A DNA stretch of 64,000 nt from an uncultured Candidatus Saccharibacteria bacterium (GTDB taxonomy: Bacteria > Patescibacteriota > Minisyncoccia > Phycocordibacterales > DATGWK01): contig CAYRZH010000002.1 in the NCBI GenBank assembly GCA_964428845.1, positions 6,924 to 70,923 on the forward strand, written 5' to 3'. Below the pieces are notes generated by a model. That model did not search any database. It had not been told where the DNA came from and saw nothing but the letters and a program-made list of their open reading frames with translations. Shown here one piece after another: positions 4,908 to 36,510 of the stretch (position 1 is its first letter; every line of letters begins with the position of its first letter). The translations under genes and the position numbers were made by a program.

Positions 4908-5315
4908 TTAGCTTTTGAGAGAAAGCCACTCCTTCTCCCCGAGTTGTCGTACACGCCCTTCGATGAGCGTCGCAATCATGCTGATCTCTTCCGCGGTTAC
5001 CCACGGTAGACCATCACTTTTGCGTCGACAAACCTGGGATATGTAGAAGCATCGTCGCACGAGCTCCTCCACAAGATCCAGGCGGTCTGATTGTTCGCAA
5101 GAGCCACGCGCCGTGACACTTGCCGCACTTGCGAGGAATCTCTCGACGTAGCCGAGATATTCATCGGGTGCCACGAGGCAGTGGAGAGGGTCAACCTCAT
5201 TCCATGCCTCGTAAACGATCGGACCGATTGGCCCCCATTTCTCCAGAAGTGCAGCCGAGATTCGACTCTCGTACGCACAGCTGAAAGAGGGAAGACCGGG
5301 GTTGTGGCTCGTCAT
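4908..5315 (-). CDS. hypothetical protein (135 aa), GC-rich
   Basis: The internal ATG at 5315 (MTSHNPGL...) is preceded by an AAAGGA RBS; the longer ORF-track start lacks an RBS. Confidence 0.5.
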   Translation of the reverse strand: MTSHNPGLPSFSCAYESRISAALLEKWGPIGPIVYEAWNEVDPLHCLVAPDEYLGYVERFLASAASVTARGSCEQSDRLDLVEELVRRCFYISQVCRRKSDGLPWVTAEEISMIATLIEGRVRQLGEKEWLSLKS

Positions 5316-5510
5316 GGTTTTTCCTTTGTGGTTCGGGGTTTCCGACACAATTAAGAAAAAACCTAACCTAACACTGCATGGCCCCACTTGGGTTCGCCAT
5401 GATGTGCCACAACCTTTCTGGTGTTTACCCTAACATATCGATAGTTTTTTGTCAAATAGTGCTCTGACTCGTGGGCAAGTTCAGAATTCTTAATTGGGTA
5501 AATATAGAAA

Positions 5511-6919: not shown

Positions 6920-7264
6920 TTAGAACCCATTTAGCCAGTATCTTTTGATTATCGGCAAAGATAGAGTAGAGAGAATGTAACCTAAAACTGGGACAAAGGC
7001 TTTTAGCCAAAAGTTGTTTTCATGAATCATTACGAGCCAAATAGCGGCGACAATGTATGTGATTATCGAAATCGTGAATCTTCGAACCCAACTTACTTCC
7101 CAAGCCTTGTCATTTTCTACACGATTGTTACGCTCTCTAATTGTCTTAAGCTCAGTTTCTATTTCTTGTGTATTCATGAAAGTAATAATAGCAAACATAA
7201 AAAGAAAACCACCGGATGAGTACCCGGCGGTCTTTTGAGTGGCGTTTTTAGGTAACCACTTCAC
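6920..7264 (-). CDS. hypothetical small membrane protein
   Basis: Three predicted TM segments; no family recognised. Confidence 0.4.
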   Translation of the reverse strand: MKWLPKNATQKTAGYSSGGFLFMFAIITFMNTQEIETELKTIRERNNRVENDKAWEVSWVRRFTISIITYIVAAIWLVMIHENNFWLKAFVPVLGYILSTLSLPIIKRYWLNGF

Positions 7265-7832
7265 TACCTCTTATTTCTTCAGCTCCTTTTCTGTGAAGTG
7301 CGGCGGCGGCGATGAGGCCACAGAGGATCACACAGACACCTGGGTAGAATCGCTCTTCGATCAACCAACCCTTGCCTCCCATTAGTGAGAGGAAGTTGGC
7401 GACGACGTACCCAATGTATATGTACCCGGTCTGCTTGTCGGGCTTCCGCCATGATTCCACGATCTGCGGTACCCCTGCGATGAAAACCGCAAGAGTGCTC
7501 GCAACGATCGCTGTTCTCGATCCGCTCATTTTCCAAACCACCAAACAAATGATGACCAGTGCGAGTATGAGCCACTCGAACCAGGTCCATTTGAATAGTT
7601 TTTTGTAAAGAAGCGAAGCAATCACGAACGACCCGCCAATCACATAGAAGACGAGCAAGAGAAAGTTTCCTCTCTCAATGATCGTGCTCACCATTGCTAT
7701 GGCGTCCAAGAAGACCCAAAGCATCCAAGCTGCGACGCTTTGCTTTACTTCACCTCTCATGATGCCTCGGATAAGCGGGACGTATAGCAGGAAGGCAAGC
7801 AGACCGCCCGCCCAGGCCAAAGTGCTCTCCAT
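7248..7832 (-). CDS. hypothetical polytopic membrane protein (194 aa), GC-enriched
   Basis: About 6 hydrophobic helices; roughly 52% GC. Confidence 0.5.
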   Translation of the reverse strand: MESTLAWAGGLLAFLLYVPLIRGIMRGEVKQSVAAWMLWVFLDAIAMVSTIIERGNFLLLVFYVIGGSFVIASLLYKKLFKWTWFEWLILALVIICLVVWKMSGSRTAIVASTLAVFIAGVPQIVESWRKPDKQTGYIYIGYVVANFLSLMGGKGWLIEERFYPGVCVILCGLIAAAALHRKGAEEIRGSEVVT

Positions 7833-7924: not shown

Positions 7925-8242
7925 CTCCGCGGGTAGGATTCGAACCTACGACCAATCGCTTACATTTGCTCCAAGCTTTCGCTCGGTATGGACTATATCA
8001 TCATCCTTCACCTGGTGGGTGGTTTGGATGTGGGGCGCTTCGTTCTGCTCTTGCAGAACTACTCTCTTGCGAGATAGTCTCTGAACCTTTCCTTTGATAA
8101 TTAATCTGGGGACTTGGCTGCTGATTGCCCACGGCTTTACGTTTGGGTTTCCAGCAATTCACCTCATTTTTCAGCCCGTATTCCTACGGGAAGCTGCGTA
8201 ATTTCGACACAGGCGATCGCTCTACCACTGAGCTACCGCGGA
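7925..8242 (-). tRNA. tRNA-Asn(GUU) interrupted by a group I intron (exons 8242-8209 and 7962-7925)
   Basis: The 5' exon reads TCCGCGG TA GCTC AGTGGTA GAGC G ATCGC CUGU. The 3' exon reads UAA GCGAT TGGTC GTAGG TTCGAAT CCTAC CCGCGGA G. This gives a perfect 7-bp acceptor stem, a CUGUUAA anticodon loop and G73 discriminator (fits Asn); CCA is not encoded. Confidence 0.75.
7963..8208 (-). ncRNA. group I self-splicing intron (246 nt) in the tRNA-Asn anticodon loop
   Basis: The conserved core elements occur in the right order: P AATTGCTGGAAA (8159-8148), Q AATCAGCAGCC (8126-8116), R GTTCAGAGACTATC (8086-8073) and S GATGATATAGTCC (8002-7990). The 5' splice site follows a U, the intron ends in G, and a GCAG guide sequence can pair with exon CUGU (U.G). 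Confidence 0.75.
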
Positions 8243-8310
8243 ATATTATATTTTCTACAAACTTCAAAGAACGCTGAACATCATAGCAAAAACTCCTCTA
8301 TAATAAAAGC

Positions 8311-8544
8311 ATGTACATCAAAATCCGCGCCGTACCATCGGCTAAAAAAGAGCTGTTCGAGCAAGTCTCCAAAGACCACTTTAAGATTACTGTGCGCGAG
8401 AAGCCGAAGAACAACCAGGCCAATCAGCGCATCGTCGCTCTCGTGGCTTCCCACTTCAAGATCGCTTCAGGGAAGGTGAGAATTATTTCAGGCCATCATT
8501 CGCCAAGCAAAATTCTTTCAGTCGATATTGAAACAGTCGGTTAA
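8311..8544 (+). CDS. DUF167 / YggU-family protein
   Basis: MYIKIRAVPSAKKE....ITVREKPKNNQANQRIVALVASHF...GKVRIISG matches the YggU pattern. Confidence 0.65.
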   Translation: MYIKIRAVPSAKKELFEQVSKDHFKITVREKPKNNQANQRIVALVASHFKIASGKVRIISGHHSPSKILSVDIETVG

Positions 8545-8614: not shown

Positions 8615-9037
8615 ATGAAAAAGATTATCAGTAACCATACGAGCATGAAAATAAACATCAAAGCCACAAATATGCATTTGACTCCCGAAATATCAGATTA
8701 TCTAGAAAAGAAGATAAATATGCTCGACAGACTGATCGACCCAGCTGATACAAGCGTTTCCTGCAATATAGAAGTCGGCAAGACAACCAACCACCACAAA
8801 ACAGGAGATGTTTTTAGGACAGAAATAAATTTAACAAAAGATGGCAAATACTTTCGGGCAGTGGCGGAAGAGGAGACACTCAACGCCTCGATTGATGAAG
8901 CGAAAGATGAAATCATGCGAGAGCTTAAGAGCCACAAATCAAAACGCCAGACTCTCATTCGACGTGGTGGTGCGAGAATAAAGGATCTTATAAGGGGTGT
9001 TGGAAATCTGAAGAATTTGAGGCGGTGGAGGAGGTAG
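8615..9037 (+). CDS. hpf: ribosome hibernation promoting factor / RaiA-family protein
   Basis: MKINIKATNMHLTPEISDYLEKKI is a sigma-54 modulation / YfiA family signature; the start may be at 8645. Confidence 0.8.
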   Translation: MKKIISNHTSMKINIKATNMHLTPEISDYLEKKINMLDRLIDPADTSVSCNIEVGKTTNHHKTGDVFRTEINLTKDGKYFRAVAEEETLNASIDEAKDEIMRELKSHKSKRQTLIRRGGARIKDLIRGVGNLKNLRRWRR

Positions 9038-18808: not shown

Positions 18809-18836
18809 AAACACCCGCTTCCATTTTGGAAGCGGG
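18809..18836 (-). terminator. intrinsic terminator for gene 18877-19476
   Basis: ACCCGCTTCC atttt GGAAGCGGGT hairpin followed by TTTTTTT on the minus strand. Confidence 0.65.
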
Positions 18837-18876
18837 TAACGTACTGGGTCGTGTGAACGTGGACATGGGCATAGTG

Positions 18877-19476
18877 CTACTTTCTACTGCGCCTCTTCTT
18901 CTTCGACTTCGTCGAGGTGTCCTTCCAGCCGAGCCGGCCGGTGACTTTGTAGAGATTGAGCGGGGCGCCCTTCTTGCCGTCGCGGGGTTGCTTGCCGACA
19001 ACGACGATGCCATCGAGCAGACGCGACAAGATGAGAGAAACATGGTTCGGCATAAACGCCACGGACATTCTCGACAGCTTATCGGTCACATCGTGGCGAG
19101 TGAAACGCTCCAGACCACGCATACTCTCGACTGCCTGGAGGACATGGGGCTTCAGGTCGGTCATGGACAGCTCGTTGCCGTTGCGTGGGGTGGCTCTGCG
19201 CCGGCGCCTCTTGGTCTTTGCCGGGAGCGAAGTCCTCGTTTTGGTCAGGACTGCCGGCGAAGAGTTTACCGAGTTCGCGTGCCCGGAAGACTTGCTGGAT
19301 GGGTTTGTTCCATCGAGCCGCGCGCTCACAAGCTCCAGGCCGAACGACGCACAGAGGCTATCGAAGATCCTCTGTAGCTCGGCCATGTGCCTCTGATACT
19401 TGTCCTCGTATTCCCGACATCGCCTCTCGAATTCAGCCACCAACGCCGCCTGCAGAGCCCGTCTCTTCATAGGCAT
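18877..19476 (-). CDS. hypothetical basic protein with C-terminal winged-helix-like region (199 aa), GC-rich
   Basis: ATG at 19476 preceded by AAGGAG; Arg/Lys-rich; the C-terminal segment LSRMSVAFMPNHVSLILSRLLDGIVVVG..KGAPLNLYKVTG resembles a wHTH; about 60% GC. Confidence 0.55.
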   Translation of the reverse strand: MPMKRRALQAALVAEFERRCREYEDKYQRHMAELQRIFDSLCASFGLELVSARLDGTNPSSKSSGHANSVNSSPAVLTKTRTSLPAKTKRRRRRATPRNGNELSMTDLKPHVLQAVESMRGLERFTRHDVTDKLSRMSVAFMPNHVSLILSRLLDGIVVVGKQPRDGKKGAPLNLYKVTGRLGWKDTSTKSKKKRRSRK

Positions 19477-19642
19477 ATACTTACTCCTTGCCGTTTTACG
19501 GCTTTATGCGGGCTTGGAACCCTGTTTACCTGTTACTAGATCTCCAAGGTCTAGCGACATCTGTCTACCAAAACCACCATTCTGGGGTGGATATTACACA
19601 CCCTGTACATTTTGTCAATACATGGTAATATCTGTCCCAGTG

Positions 19643-19675
19643 GGCCTGTAATGGTTACAGGCCATTTAATGGTTC
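19643..19675. promoter_or_regulatory. perfect palindrome GGCCTGTAA-TGG-TTACAGGCC plus a TAATGGTT direct repeat in the divergent control region
   Basis: Seen directly, between divergent genes 18877-19476(-) and 19713-20018(+). Confidence 0.45.
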
Positions 19676-19712
19676 TTTTACAAAGGAATTTAGAATCCAA
19701 GAAAGGGAAATA

Positions 19713-20018
19713 GTGCTCAAGCCACAAGTCAGAAGGGATTCTGACAACGGTTTCATAAAGGCCGTTGTTGGGAAAGTTCGTGATAATGGCAAAGGTGTAT
19801 TTGCAGTCGCCTACCTACAGAATGGTGAAACCCACCCAAATATTTCTGCTGGAGAAAGCATCACGTTTTCTCTAGACGATTGGGGGGGGAGGCTCCAACC
19901 GCGCGTTGGACAAGTTGTTCTGTTGGGGGATGTTCAGTGTTTTGCCAAGGGATGGCGTGCATTGTCTGCACGCCCCGTCACACTCGAGCCACAAGCCACA
20001 GCCACAAGAAAGGGGTAG
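19713..20018 (+). CDS. hypothetical protein (101 aa), first gene of the GHKL operon
   Basis: GTG at 19713 with an AAGGGA RBS; the C-terminus EPQATATRKG is encoded by the 30-bp direct repeat. Confidence 0.5.
   Translation: MLKPQVRRDSDNGFIKAVVGKVRDNGKGVFAVAYLQNGETHPNISAGESITFSLDDWGGRLQPRVGQVVLLGDVQCFAKGWRALSARPVTLEPQATATRKG
19984..20013 (+). repeat. 30-bp direct repeat DR1 (TCGAGCCACAAGCCACAGCCACAAGAAAGG)
   Basis: Identical copy at 20808-20837; each copy encodes a C-terminal EPQATATRK and supplies the RBS of the next gene. Confidence 0.8.
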
Positions 20019-20020
20019 TT

Positions 20021-20848
20021 ATGCAGAGGAAAGTCAACAGGGGTTCAACGGCAGAATGTCTCAAGGTTTTTTCGGACGAGAATCGCTTCAATGTTACCAA
20101 CATAGCGCGGTGTCGCGTTCGCAATCAAGTCTGTACGCTTCTTAGGATATCAGCCTCGACTGGTCATGCTTGGTTTGCCAGGCAGATTCTGCCGACTGGT
20201 GTAAACATGTTCAAGTTGCAACTTCTTCTCGAAGTTTGTGGCTTTGAAATCAAAGAGCGGCAGAATCTAACTCCTCTGTCTCGCGCTCTTGCTGATCAGG
20301 TGGCCCTGAATGTTCTTTCGGTTGGAAGAGCAGCCTCATTCATTGGGTCAGATGAAGACAAGATTGTCGCGCTCGCGTCTGGTCGTGAAGGAGCCAGTCC
20401 AGATCGGATCTCGAGAACGACCGAATTAGTAGAGATGGAAAAGCCGGCGGCGGAATCAAGAATGGAATTTTTCCGTCAGTCCCTGAAAAAGTTTGGCGTA
20501 GTTTTTGCACAGGAAGCACCTTCGCAGGAGACAGTTCGTGTCGACGCAGATATGCAAGTGCCTACGTCGACTTTGTCACCATCGGCACCACCCTTGGCGA
20601 GCGACACTGATCGGACGCATGCTGTTCATGCGCTCGCGCATCTAGTTTTGGGGATCAAGCACCTTGCCGCAAGAGTGGCCTCCGACGAGTTTACTCCAGC
20701 GGAAAGAGATATGCTTCGTCGTATGACAGGTAATGGCCTTTCCAATGCGATCTTCGATCTTTCGAACATCTTTCACCGCTTGTGCGGTGAGAGAGCTCGG
20801 AGTCGAATCGAGCCACAAGCCACAGCCACAAGAAAGGAGCCGTTGTGA
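20021..20848 (+). CDS. hypothetical protein (275 aa), second gene of the GHKL operon
   Basis: The ATG at 20021 is 2 nt after the gene-1 stop, with an AAAGGGG RBS; the C-terminus EPQATATRKEPL comes from DR2. Confidence 0.55.
   Translation: MQRKVNRGSTAECLKVFSDENRFNVTNIARCRVRNQVCTLLRISASTGHAWFARQILPTGVNMFKLQLLLEVCGFEIKERQNLTPLSRALADQVALNVLSVGRAASFIGSDEDKIVALASGREGASPDRISRTTELVEMEKPAAESRMEFFRQSLKKFGVVFAQEAPSQETVRVDADMQVPTSTLSPSAPPLASDTDRTHAVHALAHLVLGIKHLAARVASDEFTPAERDMLRRMTGNGLSNAIFDLSNIFHRLCGERARSRIEPQATATRKEPL
20808..20837 (+). repeat. 30-bp direct repeat DR2
   Basis: Identical to DR1. Confidence 0.8.
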
Positions 20849-22566
20849 GGAATTTCACACCGCCGTCTACTGCTGGCAGACACACCGCCATTAAGTTCAA
20901 TCAGGGCCAGGCCCTCTTGCATCTTGCTGGCATGTACCCGACTTTGCATGAGGTTATCCTCGAGCTTGTCCAAAACGCCCTAGACAAGGACGTGCGGGCA
21001 ACTCGGATCTGGATCGTTGTCAATCAAAAGACTCGGCACATCGCGGTGCGCGACAATGGTGCCGGAACAACGCTTGATAGATTCAACGAGGCACTTGCGT
21101 CAGTCGCGGAACCAGGCCGCAAGGGCGAGGGGAGTCTGGGACAGTTTGGTATCGGTCTCATTTCTCCTCTTGGTAAGTGTAAAGAGTTTGTTTTTCTCTC
21201 CTGCCCAGCACCTCATATGTACGGGTTCCAGGAGTGGACGTTTAGAACCGATCACATCACTGCGCAAAGACAGGATCTGATGATCCCTCTACGAGCTCGA
21301 GATGATCTCACGCTTCAGGATAGACCTCCTCCAGGAAAAACCCGGCTCCAGTGGCGATCGGAAATGAGCCTTACTGGTATCACGACTGATGGTGTCGTTG
21401 GTCAGATTTCCATGGACGCTCTTATCGGGGGTATTCAAGACCGCTATGCCACCGTTATGCGGCGTAACAAGACTATCATTTCGGTGGAGATCACCGACAA
21501 GGATGGTAGTGTCGAACGGCGGCCCAATGTGACGGCTTCAGACTTTCGAGGTCGTGCTCTCGAAGAGTGGACGTATGTAGAGCCCTCTGCTGGCAGGACC
21601 ACATTTCGTTTGTTTGTTGCTCCCAAGTCCAAAACGGGACGAAGCGGGCGGGTGGTTGTGGGAATCATGGGGAATGATTTCAGAATTCCACTCCACTATG
21701 TCGTCCGATCTGCGACCGCTCTTCTTGGCGAAGAAGTGGTTACGGCACTGTCGTCTGGTCTTTTCGAGGGAGAAATCATCTCTGAGTGTGCCAAACTGCA
21801 CCCAAGTCGCAGAAGTCTTGTCAAAGACGATGCTTTCATTGGCTTCTGTTTGGCTATCGAGGAGTGGTATAACCAAGTTGGGTCAAAGTGTGTTGATGAG
21901 ATTCGTCAGTCCCGACAGGAACAACGGTTCCAGGATCTGGGACTGCGATCGATGAAGGTGATCGAGGGTCTGCTCAATAATCCCGCGCTTTCATCGCTCC
22001 GGGCGGTTATCGGTTCTTTTGGCCGAGGCACGGTCAGTAGTGCTCACCATGACCCCACGAAGAAGGTCGTAGGTGAGCAGGAAAAGCCAGCCTTGTCGGT
22101 TCAGGGAGTCTTTGCCACGCCGAGTGGAGAAGACCCGGAAGATCCTGACGACGGCGGAGGATCTTCTGCCGAGAAGCCGCCTCGGCCGCCTCTCACTGTC
22201 ACAGGTCCTAGAGGTCCAAGACGGAAGATCGTGAGAAGCTCGAGCTTCGGCTTGCAGTTTGCTCATGAGCCAGTTGAGGGTTCTCCCGACTTGTGGAATC
22301 TTGACACAAGAGAGGGTGTACTGACCTTCAACATCCGGCATCCACTCTGGGTTGCCTGTGATGTGAGGGACGTTCCACTCATGAAACTGCAGGAGTGGGT
22401 GGCGATACAGGCGTTGACGCTTGAGATGATGCCTCCGGCCCTGCGCGTTCCACAACGGCTTATTTTGGATGAGATCACCGTTTCGATGGTTTCCTGGATT
22501 CTTGGTGCTGACAAAGCGAGGGGTTCTATCCCGAACCCGAAGGGTAAGAGGAGACCCTCGCAGTAA
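20845..22566 (+). CDS. GHKL/Bergerat-fold ATPase (HATPase_c_3; MORC/Hsp90/MutL-like N-domain) with a ~440-aa uncharacterised C-terminal region
   Basis: N-box ELVQNALDKD, G1 box VRDNGAGT and G2 box GSLGQFGIGLIS are present in canonical spacing. A GTG start overlaps the gene-2 stop (GTGA) and is preceded by AAAGGAG. Confidence 0.65.
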   Translation: MRNFTPPSTAGRHTAIKFNQGQALLHLAGMYPTLHEVILELVQNALDKDVRATRIWIVVNQKTRHIAVRDNGAGTTLDRFNEALASVAEPGRKGEGSLGQFGIGLISPLGKCKEFVFLSCPAPHMYGFQEWTFRTDHITAQRQDLMIPLRARDDLTLQDRPPPGKTRLQWRSEMSLTGITTDGVVGQISMDALIGGIQDRYATVMRRNKTIISVEITDKDGSVERRPNVTASDFRGRALEEWTYVEPSAGRTTFRLFVAPKSKTGRSGRVVVGIMGNDFRIPLHYVVRSATALLGEEVVTALSSGLFEGEIISECAKLHPSRRSLVKDDAFIGFCLAIEEWYNQVGSKCVDEIRQSRQEQRFQDLGLRSMKVIEGLLNNPALSSLRAVIGSFGRGTVSSAHHDPTKKVVGEQEKPALSVQGVFATPSGEDPEDPDDGGGSSAEKPPRPPLTVTGPRGPRRKIVRSSSFGLQFAHEPVEGSPDLWNLDTREGVLTFNIRHPLWVACDVRDVPLMKLQEWVAIQALTLEMMPPALRVPQRLILDEITVSMVSWILGADKARGSIPNPKGKRRPSQ

Positions 22567-22597
22567 GGCAGGTGGCTCACCAGAGACATCTGACCAC

Positions 22598-22628
22598 CCC
22601 GGTACTTGTGTGCCGGGGTTTTTTTATA
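22598..22628 (+). terminator. intrinsic terminator of the GHKL operon
   Basis: CCCCGGTAC ttgtgtg CCGGGG followed by TTTTTTTA. Confidence 0.7.
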
Positions 22629-36438: not shown

Positions 36439-36510
36439 GGCCCTATCGTCTAACGGTTAGGACGGGAGCTTCTCAAGCTCCAAATCCGGGTTCGATTCCC
36501 GGTAGGGTCA
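36439..36510 (+). tRNA. tRNA-Glu(CUC)
   Basis: GGCCCTA TC GTCT AACGGTTA GGAC G GGAGC TTCTCAA GCTCC AAAT CCGGG TTCGATT CCCGG TAGGGTC A; a Glu-like D-arm. Confidence 0.75.

Follow-up and report, generated by a model that had tools for sequence, protein, structure and literature searches.

Enhancers of translation rich in CA dinucleotides or ACA triplets are the closest described counterparts of the element reported here. In Salmonella yifK, dppA and gltI, CA-rich or ACA elements within or just upstream of the Shine-Dalgarno (SD) sequence act as transferable and position-flexible translation enhancers, according to two reports (PMC3879156; 10.1101/808485), and the role proposed for them there is anchoring of the 30S subunit, perhaps via S1. 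The first report also describes that CA repeats stimulate translation also from downstream of the start codon, that the enterobacterial CA-rich enhancers are targets of small RNAs (sRNAs), and that ACA is the cleavage site of MazF (PMC3879156). In this work, we have analysed a stretch of 64,000 nucleotides, hereafter the window, from an uncultured Candidatus Saccharibacteria bacterium (contig CAYRZH010000002.1, positions 6,924 to 70,923 of the forward strand), in which a 30-nt sequence, TCGAGCCACAAGCCACAGCCACAAGAAAGG, stands before the second and again before the third gene of a small operon. We consider it rather probable that this 30-mer is a cis-acting translation-initiation module of the mRNA, placed at each cistron and comparable with the enterobacterial CA/ACA enhancers. 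To our knowledge, translation initiation is almost unstudied in the Patescibacteria, to which the host belongs.

The two copies are exact and lie on the + strand at 19984–20013 (junction J1, between genes 1 and 2) and 20808–20837 (junction J2, between genes 2 and 3), as an earlier note on this DNA had reported. The window contains no further match to the 30-mer with up to three mismatches on either strand, and 100 shuffles returned none, so that no such match is expected by chance. The similarity between the copies reaches 36/40 nt when both start codons are included (19984–20023 versus 20808–20847). Each copy is built of three AGCCACA heptads followed by an extended SD sequence, and Tandem Repeats Finder gives AGCCACA x3.3 per copy, at 19987–20008 and 20811–20832 (both +), which bears out the tandem three-unit build that had been noticed before. 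The SD sequences, to which both copies contribute AGAAAGG(G/A)G, are AGAAAGGGG for gene 2 (20007–20015, +) and AGAAAGGAG for gene 3 (20831–20839, +); they lie 5 nt upstream of the ATG and the GTG, respectively, and we take them to be complementary to the 3' end of the 16S rRNA. The copies themselves end 7 nt before the ATG at 20021 and 7 nt before the GTG at 20845.

Each copy thus holds the last codons of one gene together with the leader and SD of the next. Gene 1 (19713–20018, +, 101 aa, GTG start) ends in LEPQATATRKG, and gene 2 (20021–20848, +, 275 aa, starting at the ATG at 20021 and not at 20022) reads through the element with its last 13 codons and ends in IEPQATATRKEPL. Because both genes enter the element in the same codon phase, they share the peptide EPQATATRK, and the earlier description of the copies as encoding this peptide while supplying the downstream ribosome-binding site (RBS) is correct for the window. 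Stops and starts are close at both junctions, with TAG, 2 nt and ATG between genes 1 and 2, and GTGA between gene 2 and gene 3 (20845–22566, +, 573 aa), whose GTG start overlaps the gene 2 stop. The copies are spaced by 824 bp and enclose nearly all of gene 2.

A degenerate third copy was revealed by repeat families and a core scan at the start of gene 1 (19698–19735, +). There, CAAGAAAGGG (19698–19707) is the SD of gene 1, and AGCCACAAGTCAGAAG (19720–19735), just past the GTG at 19713, matches 14/16 positions of the 16-nt core AGCCACAAGCCACAAG, whose conservation is described below. The relatives L004, L050, L059 and L107 share this arrangement. Allowing up to three mismatches, a scan of the window gives four matches to the core where 0.36 would be expected; the operon sites account for three. 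The window element contains three ACA triplets within 22 nt and no T at all, although the length of its T-free run is not distinctive by itself, as runs of 31 and 34 nt are among the longest in the window but not unique. No inverted repeat involving the element was found in the window; it is made of tandem direct heptads only and has no dyad symmetry.

To place the operon among its relatives, we have used gene 3, for which the protein database holds 88 homologues; the few with a source name are from Patescibacteria. We fetched 109 loci, mostly from metagenome-assembled genomes labelled Patescibacteria, and examined 106 of them for gene content. A word-index protein search returned no homologue of gene 2 and a single one of gene 1, and was replaced by phmmer/hmmsearch on the open reading frames (ORFs) upstream of the gene 3 homologues. 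By these searches, the gene 2–gene 3 pair is present in 106/106 loci and gene 1 is detected in 32. In the gene 3 tree, loci containing gene 1 and loci free of it are interleaved.

Many of the three-gene relatives carry short repeats of their own at the same two junctions, and these are likewise C/A-rich and T-poor. Examples are AGCCACAAGCCACAAGAAAGGA in L107 (two copies), CACAAGCCACAAGAAAGGAAC in L004 (two copies, with a further one of 14 nt where gene 1 starts), and AGCAAGAAGCAAGAAG, CAGCAACAAGCAG, AGCAATCAGCAA, AGCAGTCAGCAAC and ACCAGCAATAAGC in L050, L096, L093, L073 and L013, respectively. When the 50 nt before gene 2 were compared with the 50 nt before gene 3, the longest common substring was at least 10 nt in 12 of the 26 non-redundant three-gene loci, but in only 4.3% of between-locus pairs (binomial p = 2e-10). 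In several three-gene loci, no motif is clear. Junction repeats of 10 nt or more occur in 14 loci, and there the repeats at J1 and J2 stand almost equally far from the start that follows (7/7, 7/7, 12/12, 15/15, 5/5, 20/22 and so on). These junction copies end 5–25 nt upstream of that start. Further copies are found between +4 and +23 of gene 1.

With respect to the upstream ORF, by contrast, the 14 loci with such repeats vary: junction copies are coding, stop-spanning or non-coding, and phases 0, 1 and 2 all occur. In L004, the J1 copy lies within gene 1 and the J2 copy past the gene 2 stop; in L107, J1 is again within gene 1 while the J2 copy spans the gene 2 stop. The gene 2 homologues of L057, L004 and L107 end before the element, both copies of L096 are intergenic and follow both stops, and in L108 genes 1 and 2 read the nucleotides of the element in two frames, both unlike the frame of the window. 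Among 27 gene 1 homologues, the tails vary from 3 to 18 residues and show no conservation past the ARP motif. The earlier note had asked whether homologues carry the same tail, and in general they do not. A fixed distance to the downstream start, combined with a variable relation to the upstream ORF, shows that the signal resides in the nucleic acid as part of the downstream initiation region, the shared peptide being incidental. Among the readings offered before, a conserved translational-coupling element comes closest, in that the element is conserved and tied to the downstream SD and start. Stop/start coupling nevertheless does not characterise the element, which several relatives carry in a spacer of 20–35 nt after the upstream stop codon.

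The nucleotide sequence itself is kept over a long evolutionary distance. The 16-nt core occurs at 10/10 junctions of the window and of L107, L108, L057 and L004, either exactly, with one mismatch or with a few nucleotides inserted (one further unit in the window, AAAC at J2 of L108). Among these five loci, the gene 3 proteins are 52–70% identical, while four-fold degenerate sites are 31–40% identical, that is, saturated. Kept at all 10 junctions despite this saturation, the core is under purifying selection for its specific nucleotide sequence. Outside the operon family, neither the exact 30-mer in the genome contig collection nor a 20-nt core in the viral contig collection has any match. A search for the 30-mer beyond the locus, as proposed earlier, is therefore negative for the literal sequence, but homologous operons do keep either the 16-nt core or junction repeats of their own.

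The composition of the junctions also departs from that of ordinary upstream regions. We have taken 343 upstream regions of flanking genes, with heuristic start calls, as the control. Per 37 nt, the junctions of three-gene operons contain 4.3–5.0 CA dinucleotides versus 2.3 in flanking genes, and 1.1–1.3 ACA versus 0.52 (p = 4e-6), and their T content is 9–13% versus 23%. The predicted unpaired probability from -40 to -10 is 0.565 at the junctions and 0.435 in flanking genes (p = 5e-12). The ACA and CA counts were chosen from the literature and are not circular; the list of AGCAA/CCACAA motifs used below was partly picked after seeing the data.

Overall, these observations are what an initiation module would produce. 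A T-free, C/A-rich block of heptads (AGCCACA x3) would keep the RBS single-stranded and would offer the 30S subunit an anchor or standby site, so that genes 1, 2 and 3 would initiate efficiently and similarly on one polycistronic mRNA. The upstream ORFs merely run into the element, and its copies, being direct repeats, are substrates for deletion of the gene between them. Several points weigh against this account. Enhancement of translation is deduced by analogy and from composition only, the difference in accessibility is modest, and the flanking-gene control depends on heuristic start calls. In addition, a generic unstructured enhancer leaves unexplained why a 16-nt sequence is kept across saturated divergence, why the copies co-vary within a locus, and why the motif is absent from two-gene operons and from the other genes of the host. 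Core conservation, co-variation within loci and absence elsewhere suggest that the element has a sequence-specific partner.

Such a partner may be encoded in the operon itself. Tentatively, the element could be an mRNA operator for an operon-encoded factor, most likely the gene 1 protein, possibly an OB/cold-shock-like single-strand binder, which would attach to the heptads of all three initiation regions and thereby set or autoregulate translation. This is compatible with an initiation module and refines it. Besides the core kept at saturated divergence, the motif variants differ from clade to clade, whereas in any one locus J1, J2 and the gene 1 start carry matching ones. AGCAA/CCACAA motifs occur at 0.7–1.0 per junction in three-gene loci versus 0.05–0.08 in two-gene loci and flanking genes. 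When loci containing gene 1 were paired with loci free of it (14 phylogenetically independent pairs), six pairs had more of the J2 motif in the gene 1-containing member and none had less (p = 0.03). This association, however, comes from few contrasts, with eight ties, and from the partly post hoc motif list. The motif is found in L107 and L108 but not in their relative L109, whose operon is without gene 1; yet L109 and others have a gene 1-like paralogue on the other strand and still show no motif, and the three-gene loci in which no motif is clear speak against the proposal as well.

The gene 1 protein has a conserved core, ITFSL..W.G...GQVV.L...GWRA..ARP, followed by the variable tail, and its family comprises 258 cluster representatives at 50% identity, all of them small except for one 969-aa match. 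It belongs to no Pfam family, and a profile search against the PDB was empty. An alignment by hhalign with E. coli CspA reached a probability of 9.8%, so similarity to the cold-shock domain, including its RNP motifs, was not found in these comparisons. The predicted structure, made from two sequences with a pLDDT of 60, is of low confidence and gives weak support for a cold-shock or OB fold. That gene 1 represents a new small OB-like RNA-binding family reading 6–7 nt C/A-rich heptads at every cistron start, its own included, therefore appears doubtful. If it were true, the island would be a self-contained mobile post-transcriptional circuit, in which the specificity between protein and RNA co-evolves between lineages, and which could be placed before other genes; binding of the element by gene 1 would also define a new RNA-binding protein family together with its operator.

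A placement before another gene is in fact seen in L040. On its - strand, CAGCAAACAAGCAACAGCAATAAGGAG and the overlapping ATGA start of another gene come after a strong homologue of gene 1; this other gene encodes a different 265-aa protein with an HTH_psq domain (L040:2960-3757), an unrelated helix-turn-helix (HTH) gene. Therefore, gene 1 with its CA-rich junction can stand before other genes, which agrees with an operator read by gene 1. We have also observed a gene 1 paralogue (core GSITFSL...AGWRA..GRLW) on the opposite strand, just upstream of the homologue of gene 0, the divergent neighbour of the operon, in L107 (1409–1663, -), L109 (1697–1990, -), L055, L005, L043 and L011; the window has no such paralogue upstream of gene 0. 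Because this paralogue adjoins the gene 0 homologue on the opposite strand, the island often consists of two divergent modules, each with a small protein and a partner.

The copies of the element also change in concert, which brings us to recombination. Both window copies carry an extra CCACAG unit, equal to the two codons AT, and a TCGAG flank, and relatives have neither; the closest gene 1 homologues end in (E/Q)PQATRKEQ, with no extra AT. In L107 and L004, the gene 2 stop TAG abuts the element, at the place where J2 of the window has GAG, and GAG at J1 is a codon within the L-E of gene 1. Given that the extra unit and the flank are common to both window copies, the simplest account is probably a recent gene conversion in which 30 nt or more were copied and the gene 2 stop was lost, and we infer that it ran from J1 to J2. 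The conversion would have copied the TCGAG flank and the three-unit variant, turning the ancestral TAG of gene 2 into GAG. After the loss of this stop, gene 2 would read 13 codons more, to the TGA overlapping the gene 3 start, in a phase that yields the same peptide as in gene 1, which would give the shared tail. A deletion is documented as well. L062, L063 and L064 are one sequence from three samples, namely an L059-type operon without the body of gene 1. The deleted segment is bounded precisely by two copies of the 12-nt AGCAACAAGCAA, one following the gene 1 start and the other at the 3' end of gene 1, and its loss leaves a 12-codon mini-ORF before an intact gene 2 initiation region. The copies recombine as any direct repeats do, and recombination is a by-product.

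The proposal of cassette-like duplication or recombination, made in the earlier note, thus survives in part, with the conversion in the window and the gene 1 deletion in L062–L064 on its side, but as a side effect, since gene 2 is invariant (106/106). An att-like or cassette site that serves to move gene 2 as a module is improbable. In its favour, gene 2 lies between direct repeats 824 bp apart, gene 1 and the gene 3 initiation region would both emerge intact from an in-phase crossover, and a precise deletion of gene 1 between copies is seen in a relative besides the conversion in the window. That deletion is, however, what short homologous repeats yield unaided. No recombinase was found among the four genes of the island and its neighbours (RRF, M50 peptidase, class II aminoacyl-tRNA synthetase, MreB), and the element has neither dyad symmetry nor a spacer-core architecture. 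Only gene 1 varies in presence; gene 2 is with gene 3 in all 106 loci. Moreover, each cistron start has the element, in step with its SD and start codon, and outside the operon family neither the 30-mer nor the 20-mer core has a match in the genome and viral collections. We have accordingly given up the site-specific reading.

Equally improbable is that the element serves as an mRNA target, whether for pairing with a GcvB-like G/U-rich sRNA, for an ACA-specific or intercistronic endoribonuclease, or for Rho loading. The enterobacterial precedent, where CA-rich enhancers are described as sRNA targets and ACA as the MazF site (PMC3879156), speaks for it, and so does a G/U-rich segment at 5296–5345 (+) containing GGGGUUGUGGCUCGUC and CCUUUGUGGUUCGGGG, for which a duplex with the element is predicted at -29 kcal/mol (z = -4.3 among 8528 windows). 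This candidate, however, is 14 kb away and antisense to the ORF at 4908–5387, belongs to the mere tail of the score distribution, and is probably due to chance. The duplex scan of the window found no complementary partner in the island, Rfam gave nothing in the island even at E <= 1, and the element is far shorter than typical rut sites.

Slightly less credible still are DNA operators through which the HTH protein of gene 2, or gene 0, would control transcription in the operon. The gene 2 protein has an N-terminal Cro/C1 (XRE)-type HTH, which profile searches detect (Pfam gives nothing), and the locus carries the conserved sequence three times. On the other hand, the element is strongly asymmetric between strands, being T-free on the coding strand only, and its 7-nt tandem period, lack of dyad symmetry and fixed distance to start codons do not fit such an operator. 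Two-gene operons, in addition, retain gene 2 yet lack the motif. A better candidate is the inverted repeat CTGGGGTGGATATTAC / GTAATATCTGTCCCAG (19582–19597/19625–19640) at the divergent promoter-like site between gene 0 and gene 1. It overlaps a good sigma-70-like match to a gene 0 promoter, TTGACA-16-TAATAT (19591–19618, -), and is a plausible candidate operator for one of the HTH proteins.

Selection on the EPQATATRK tail itself, e.g. as a common docking or degradation tag, is refuted as a general explanation by the frames and stop codons: two proteins of the operon do share nine residues exactly and the closest gene 1 homologues retain (E/Q)PQATRKEQ, but gene 2 homologues end before the element in L057, L004 and L107, L108 uses other frames, the element of L096 follows both stops, and the gene 1 tails are unconserved past the ARP motif. 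CRISPR and integron attC sites were rejected, as there are only two copies, inside ORFs and without dyad symmetry, and so was chance or assembly artefact, against which stand the statistics and the same architecture in independent assemblies.

Two further features were observed in the initiation and promoter regions of the island. A recurrent (T/C)CTTT(G/A/T)ACAA-like motif, at 19673–19686 in the window, lies 25–50 nt before the start of the first operon gene in many loci and precedes gene 1 or gene 2, whichever is first (e.g. L004, L107, L002, L109, L059, L063); it could serve as promoter element or as operator. A small hairpin abuts the SD of gene 0 (19484–19502, -) and is found also in L107, L109, L055, L005, L043 and L011. 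Its stem shows compensatory changes (GCCG-TAAAA-CGGC, GCCGA-GAAAA-TCGGC, GCCGAC-TAA-GTCGGC, GTCGGC-TAA-GCCGAC, GTCCCA-TGA-TGGGAC). In most loci, (C/T)CAAGCA is directly 5' of the hairpin and AAGGAG is 3' of it, and the window has CCAAGC about 9 nt upstream. This hairpin is a second, structured initiation-region element of the same island.

The operon and gene 0 (18877–19476, -, 199 aa, without Pfam match) form an island of four genes and 3.8 kb, from about 18.8 to 22.6 kb, with a GC content of 0.52–0.59 versus 0.40–0.46 outside; gene 0 is a neighbour of the operon also in related loci. The GC content steps up at the left edge, at a terminator-like intrinsic hairpin closing gene 0 (18812–18838, -), and steps down at the right edge, at another one closing gene 3 (22596–22619, +). 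Genes for an M50 peptidase and a class II aminoacyl-tRNA synthetase flank the island, and RRF and MreB follow further out. The gene 3 protein is a GHKL ATPase of the MutL/MORC/Hsp90 type, for which Pfam finds the GHKL ATPase domain only. PADLOC, NCBIfam and Pfam gave no system-level assignment for the locus, with weak matches to the GHKL domain only (TmtA, sacsin, MutL). Because homologues of the island occupy differing genomic neighbourhoods across lineages of Patescibacteria, horizontal mobility of the four-gene island is suggested, in spite of the lack of an obvious mobility gene. Elsewhere in the window, Rfam reports a full-model match to the group I catalytic intron (7970–8315, -, 82 bits), between a membrane-protein ORF (7248–7832, -) and an ORF similar to a ribosome-hibernation factor (8615–9037, +). 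Its host gene is possibly a tRNA; ARAGORN finds only one tRNA in the window, at 36439.

Taken as an initiation module, the 30-mer would be a natural case of one initiation region reused before each gene of an operon, and it suggests that enhancers of the CA/ACA type exist well beyond the enterobacteria. It also illustrates that an identical sequence within two ORFs can be a nucleic-acid signal which the ORFs merely overlap, and that the frames in relatives should be checked before a shared peptide tail is called a protein motif. The copies of such modules would change together and, being direct repeats, reshape the operon: in a relative, a gene has been lost cleanly by deletion, and in the window a probable conversion has added 13 residues to a protein.

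Deletion and gene conversion between short direct repeats are a general property of bacterial genomes, and the loss of gene 1 between 12-nt copies in L062–L064 and the homogenisation of the window copies over at least 30 nt are of the same nature; the difference is that the repeats here are putative initiation-region modules and not junk or remnants of insertion sequences. A second comparison is offered by T4 gp32, RegA, f1 gene V protein and cold-shock proteins, which are small single-strand-binding autoregulators with translational operators. As in those systems, a small protein, possibly of OB fold, is encoded in one unit with unstructured initiation regions of biased composition, and the presence of the element tracks gene 1. 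Unlike in those systems, the fold assignment of gene 1 is weak and binding is putative, and it would be unusual for a single operon to have three operators.

Standby sites and unstructured 5' tails (de Smit and van Duin; PMC5934652) share with the junctions a single-stranded flank of the RBS where the 30S subunit could wait, and the accessibility of the junctions is indeed raised. Standby sites, however, are defined by lack of structure and not by a conserved sequence such as that of our element, and the RBSs at the junctions are not predicted to lie in strong inhibitory hairpins.

The closest match remains the CA/ACA enhancers of Salmonella and E. coli (yifK, dppA, gltI; GcvB targets). As described in the reports cited at the outset, these enhancers share several traits with the element: both have C/A-rich repeats with several ACA in or immediately upstream of the RBS (four ACA motifs in dppA, three in the window element), lack structure and are flexible in position, and the copy downstream of the gene 1 start corresponds to a location where the enterobacterial enhancers are active. 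In contrast to the GcvB targets, no GU-rich sRNA partner of the element was found in the island by the duplex scan or by Rfam, the one weak candidate being that at 5296–5345, and the enhancer role is here a putative one. The element differs further in its host, a member of the Patescibacteria, and in overlapping the 3' ends of upstream ORFs. Four further traits set it apart from the known class: it recurs at each cistron of a single operon, it is built of regular tandem units of 6–7 nt, its exact sequence is kept over deep divergence, and its copies co-vary within loci.

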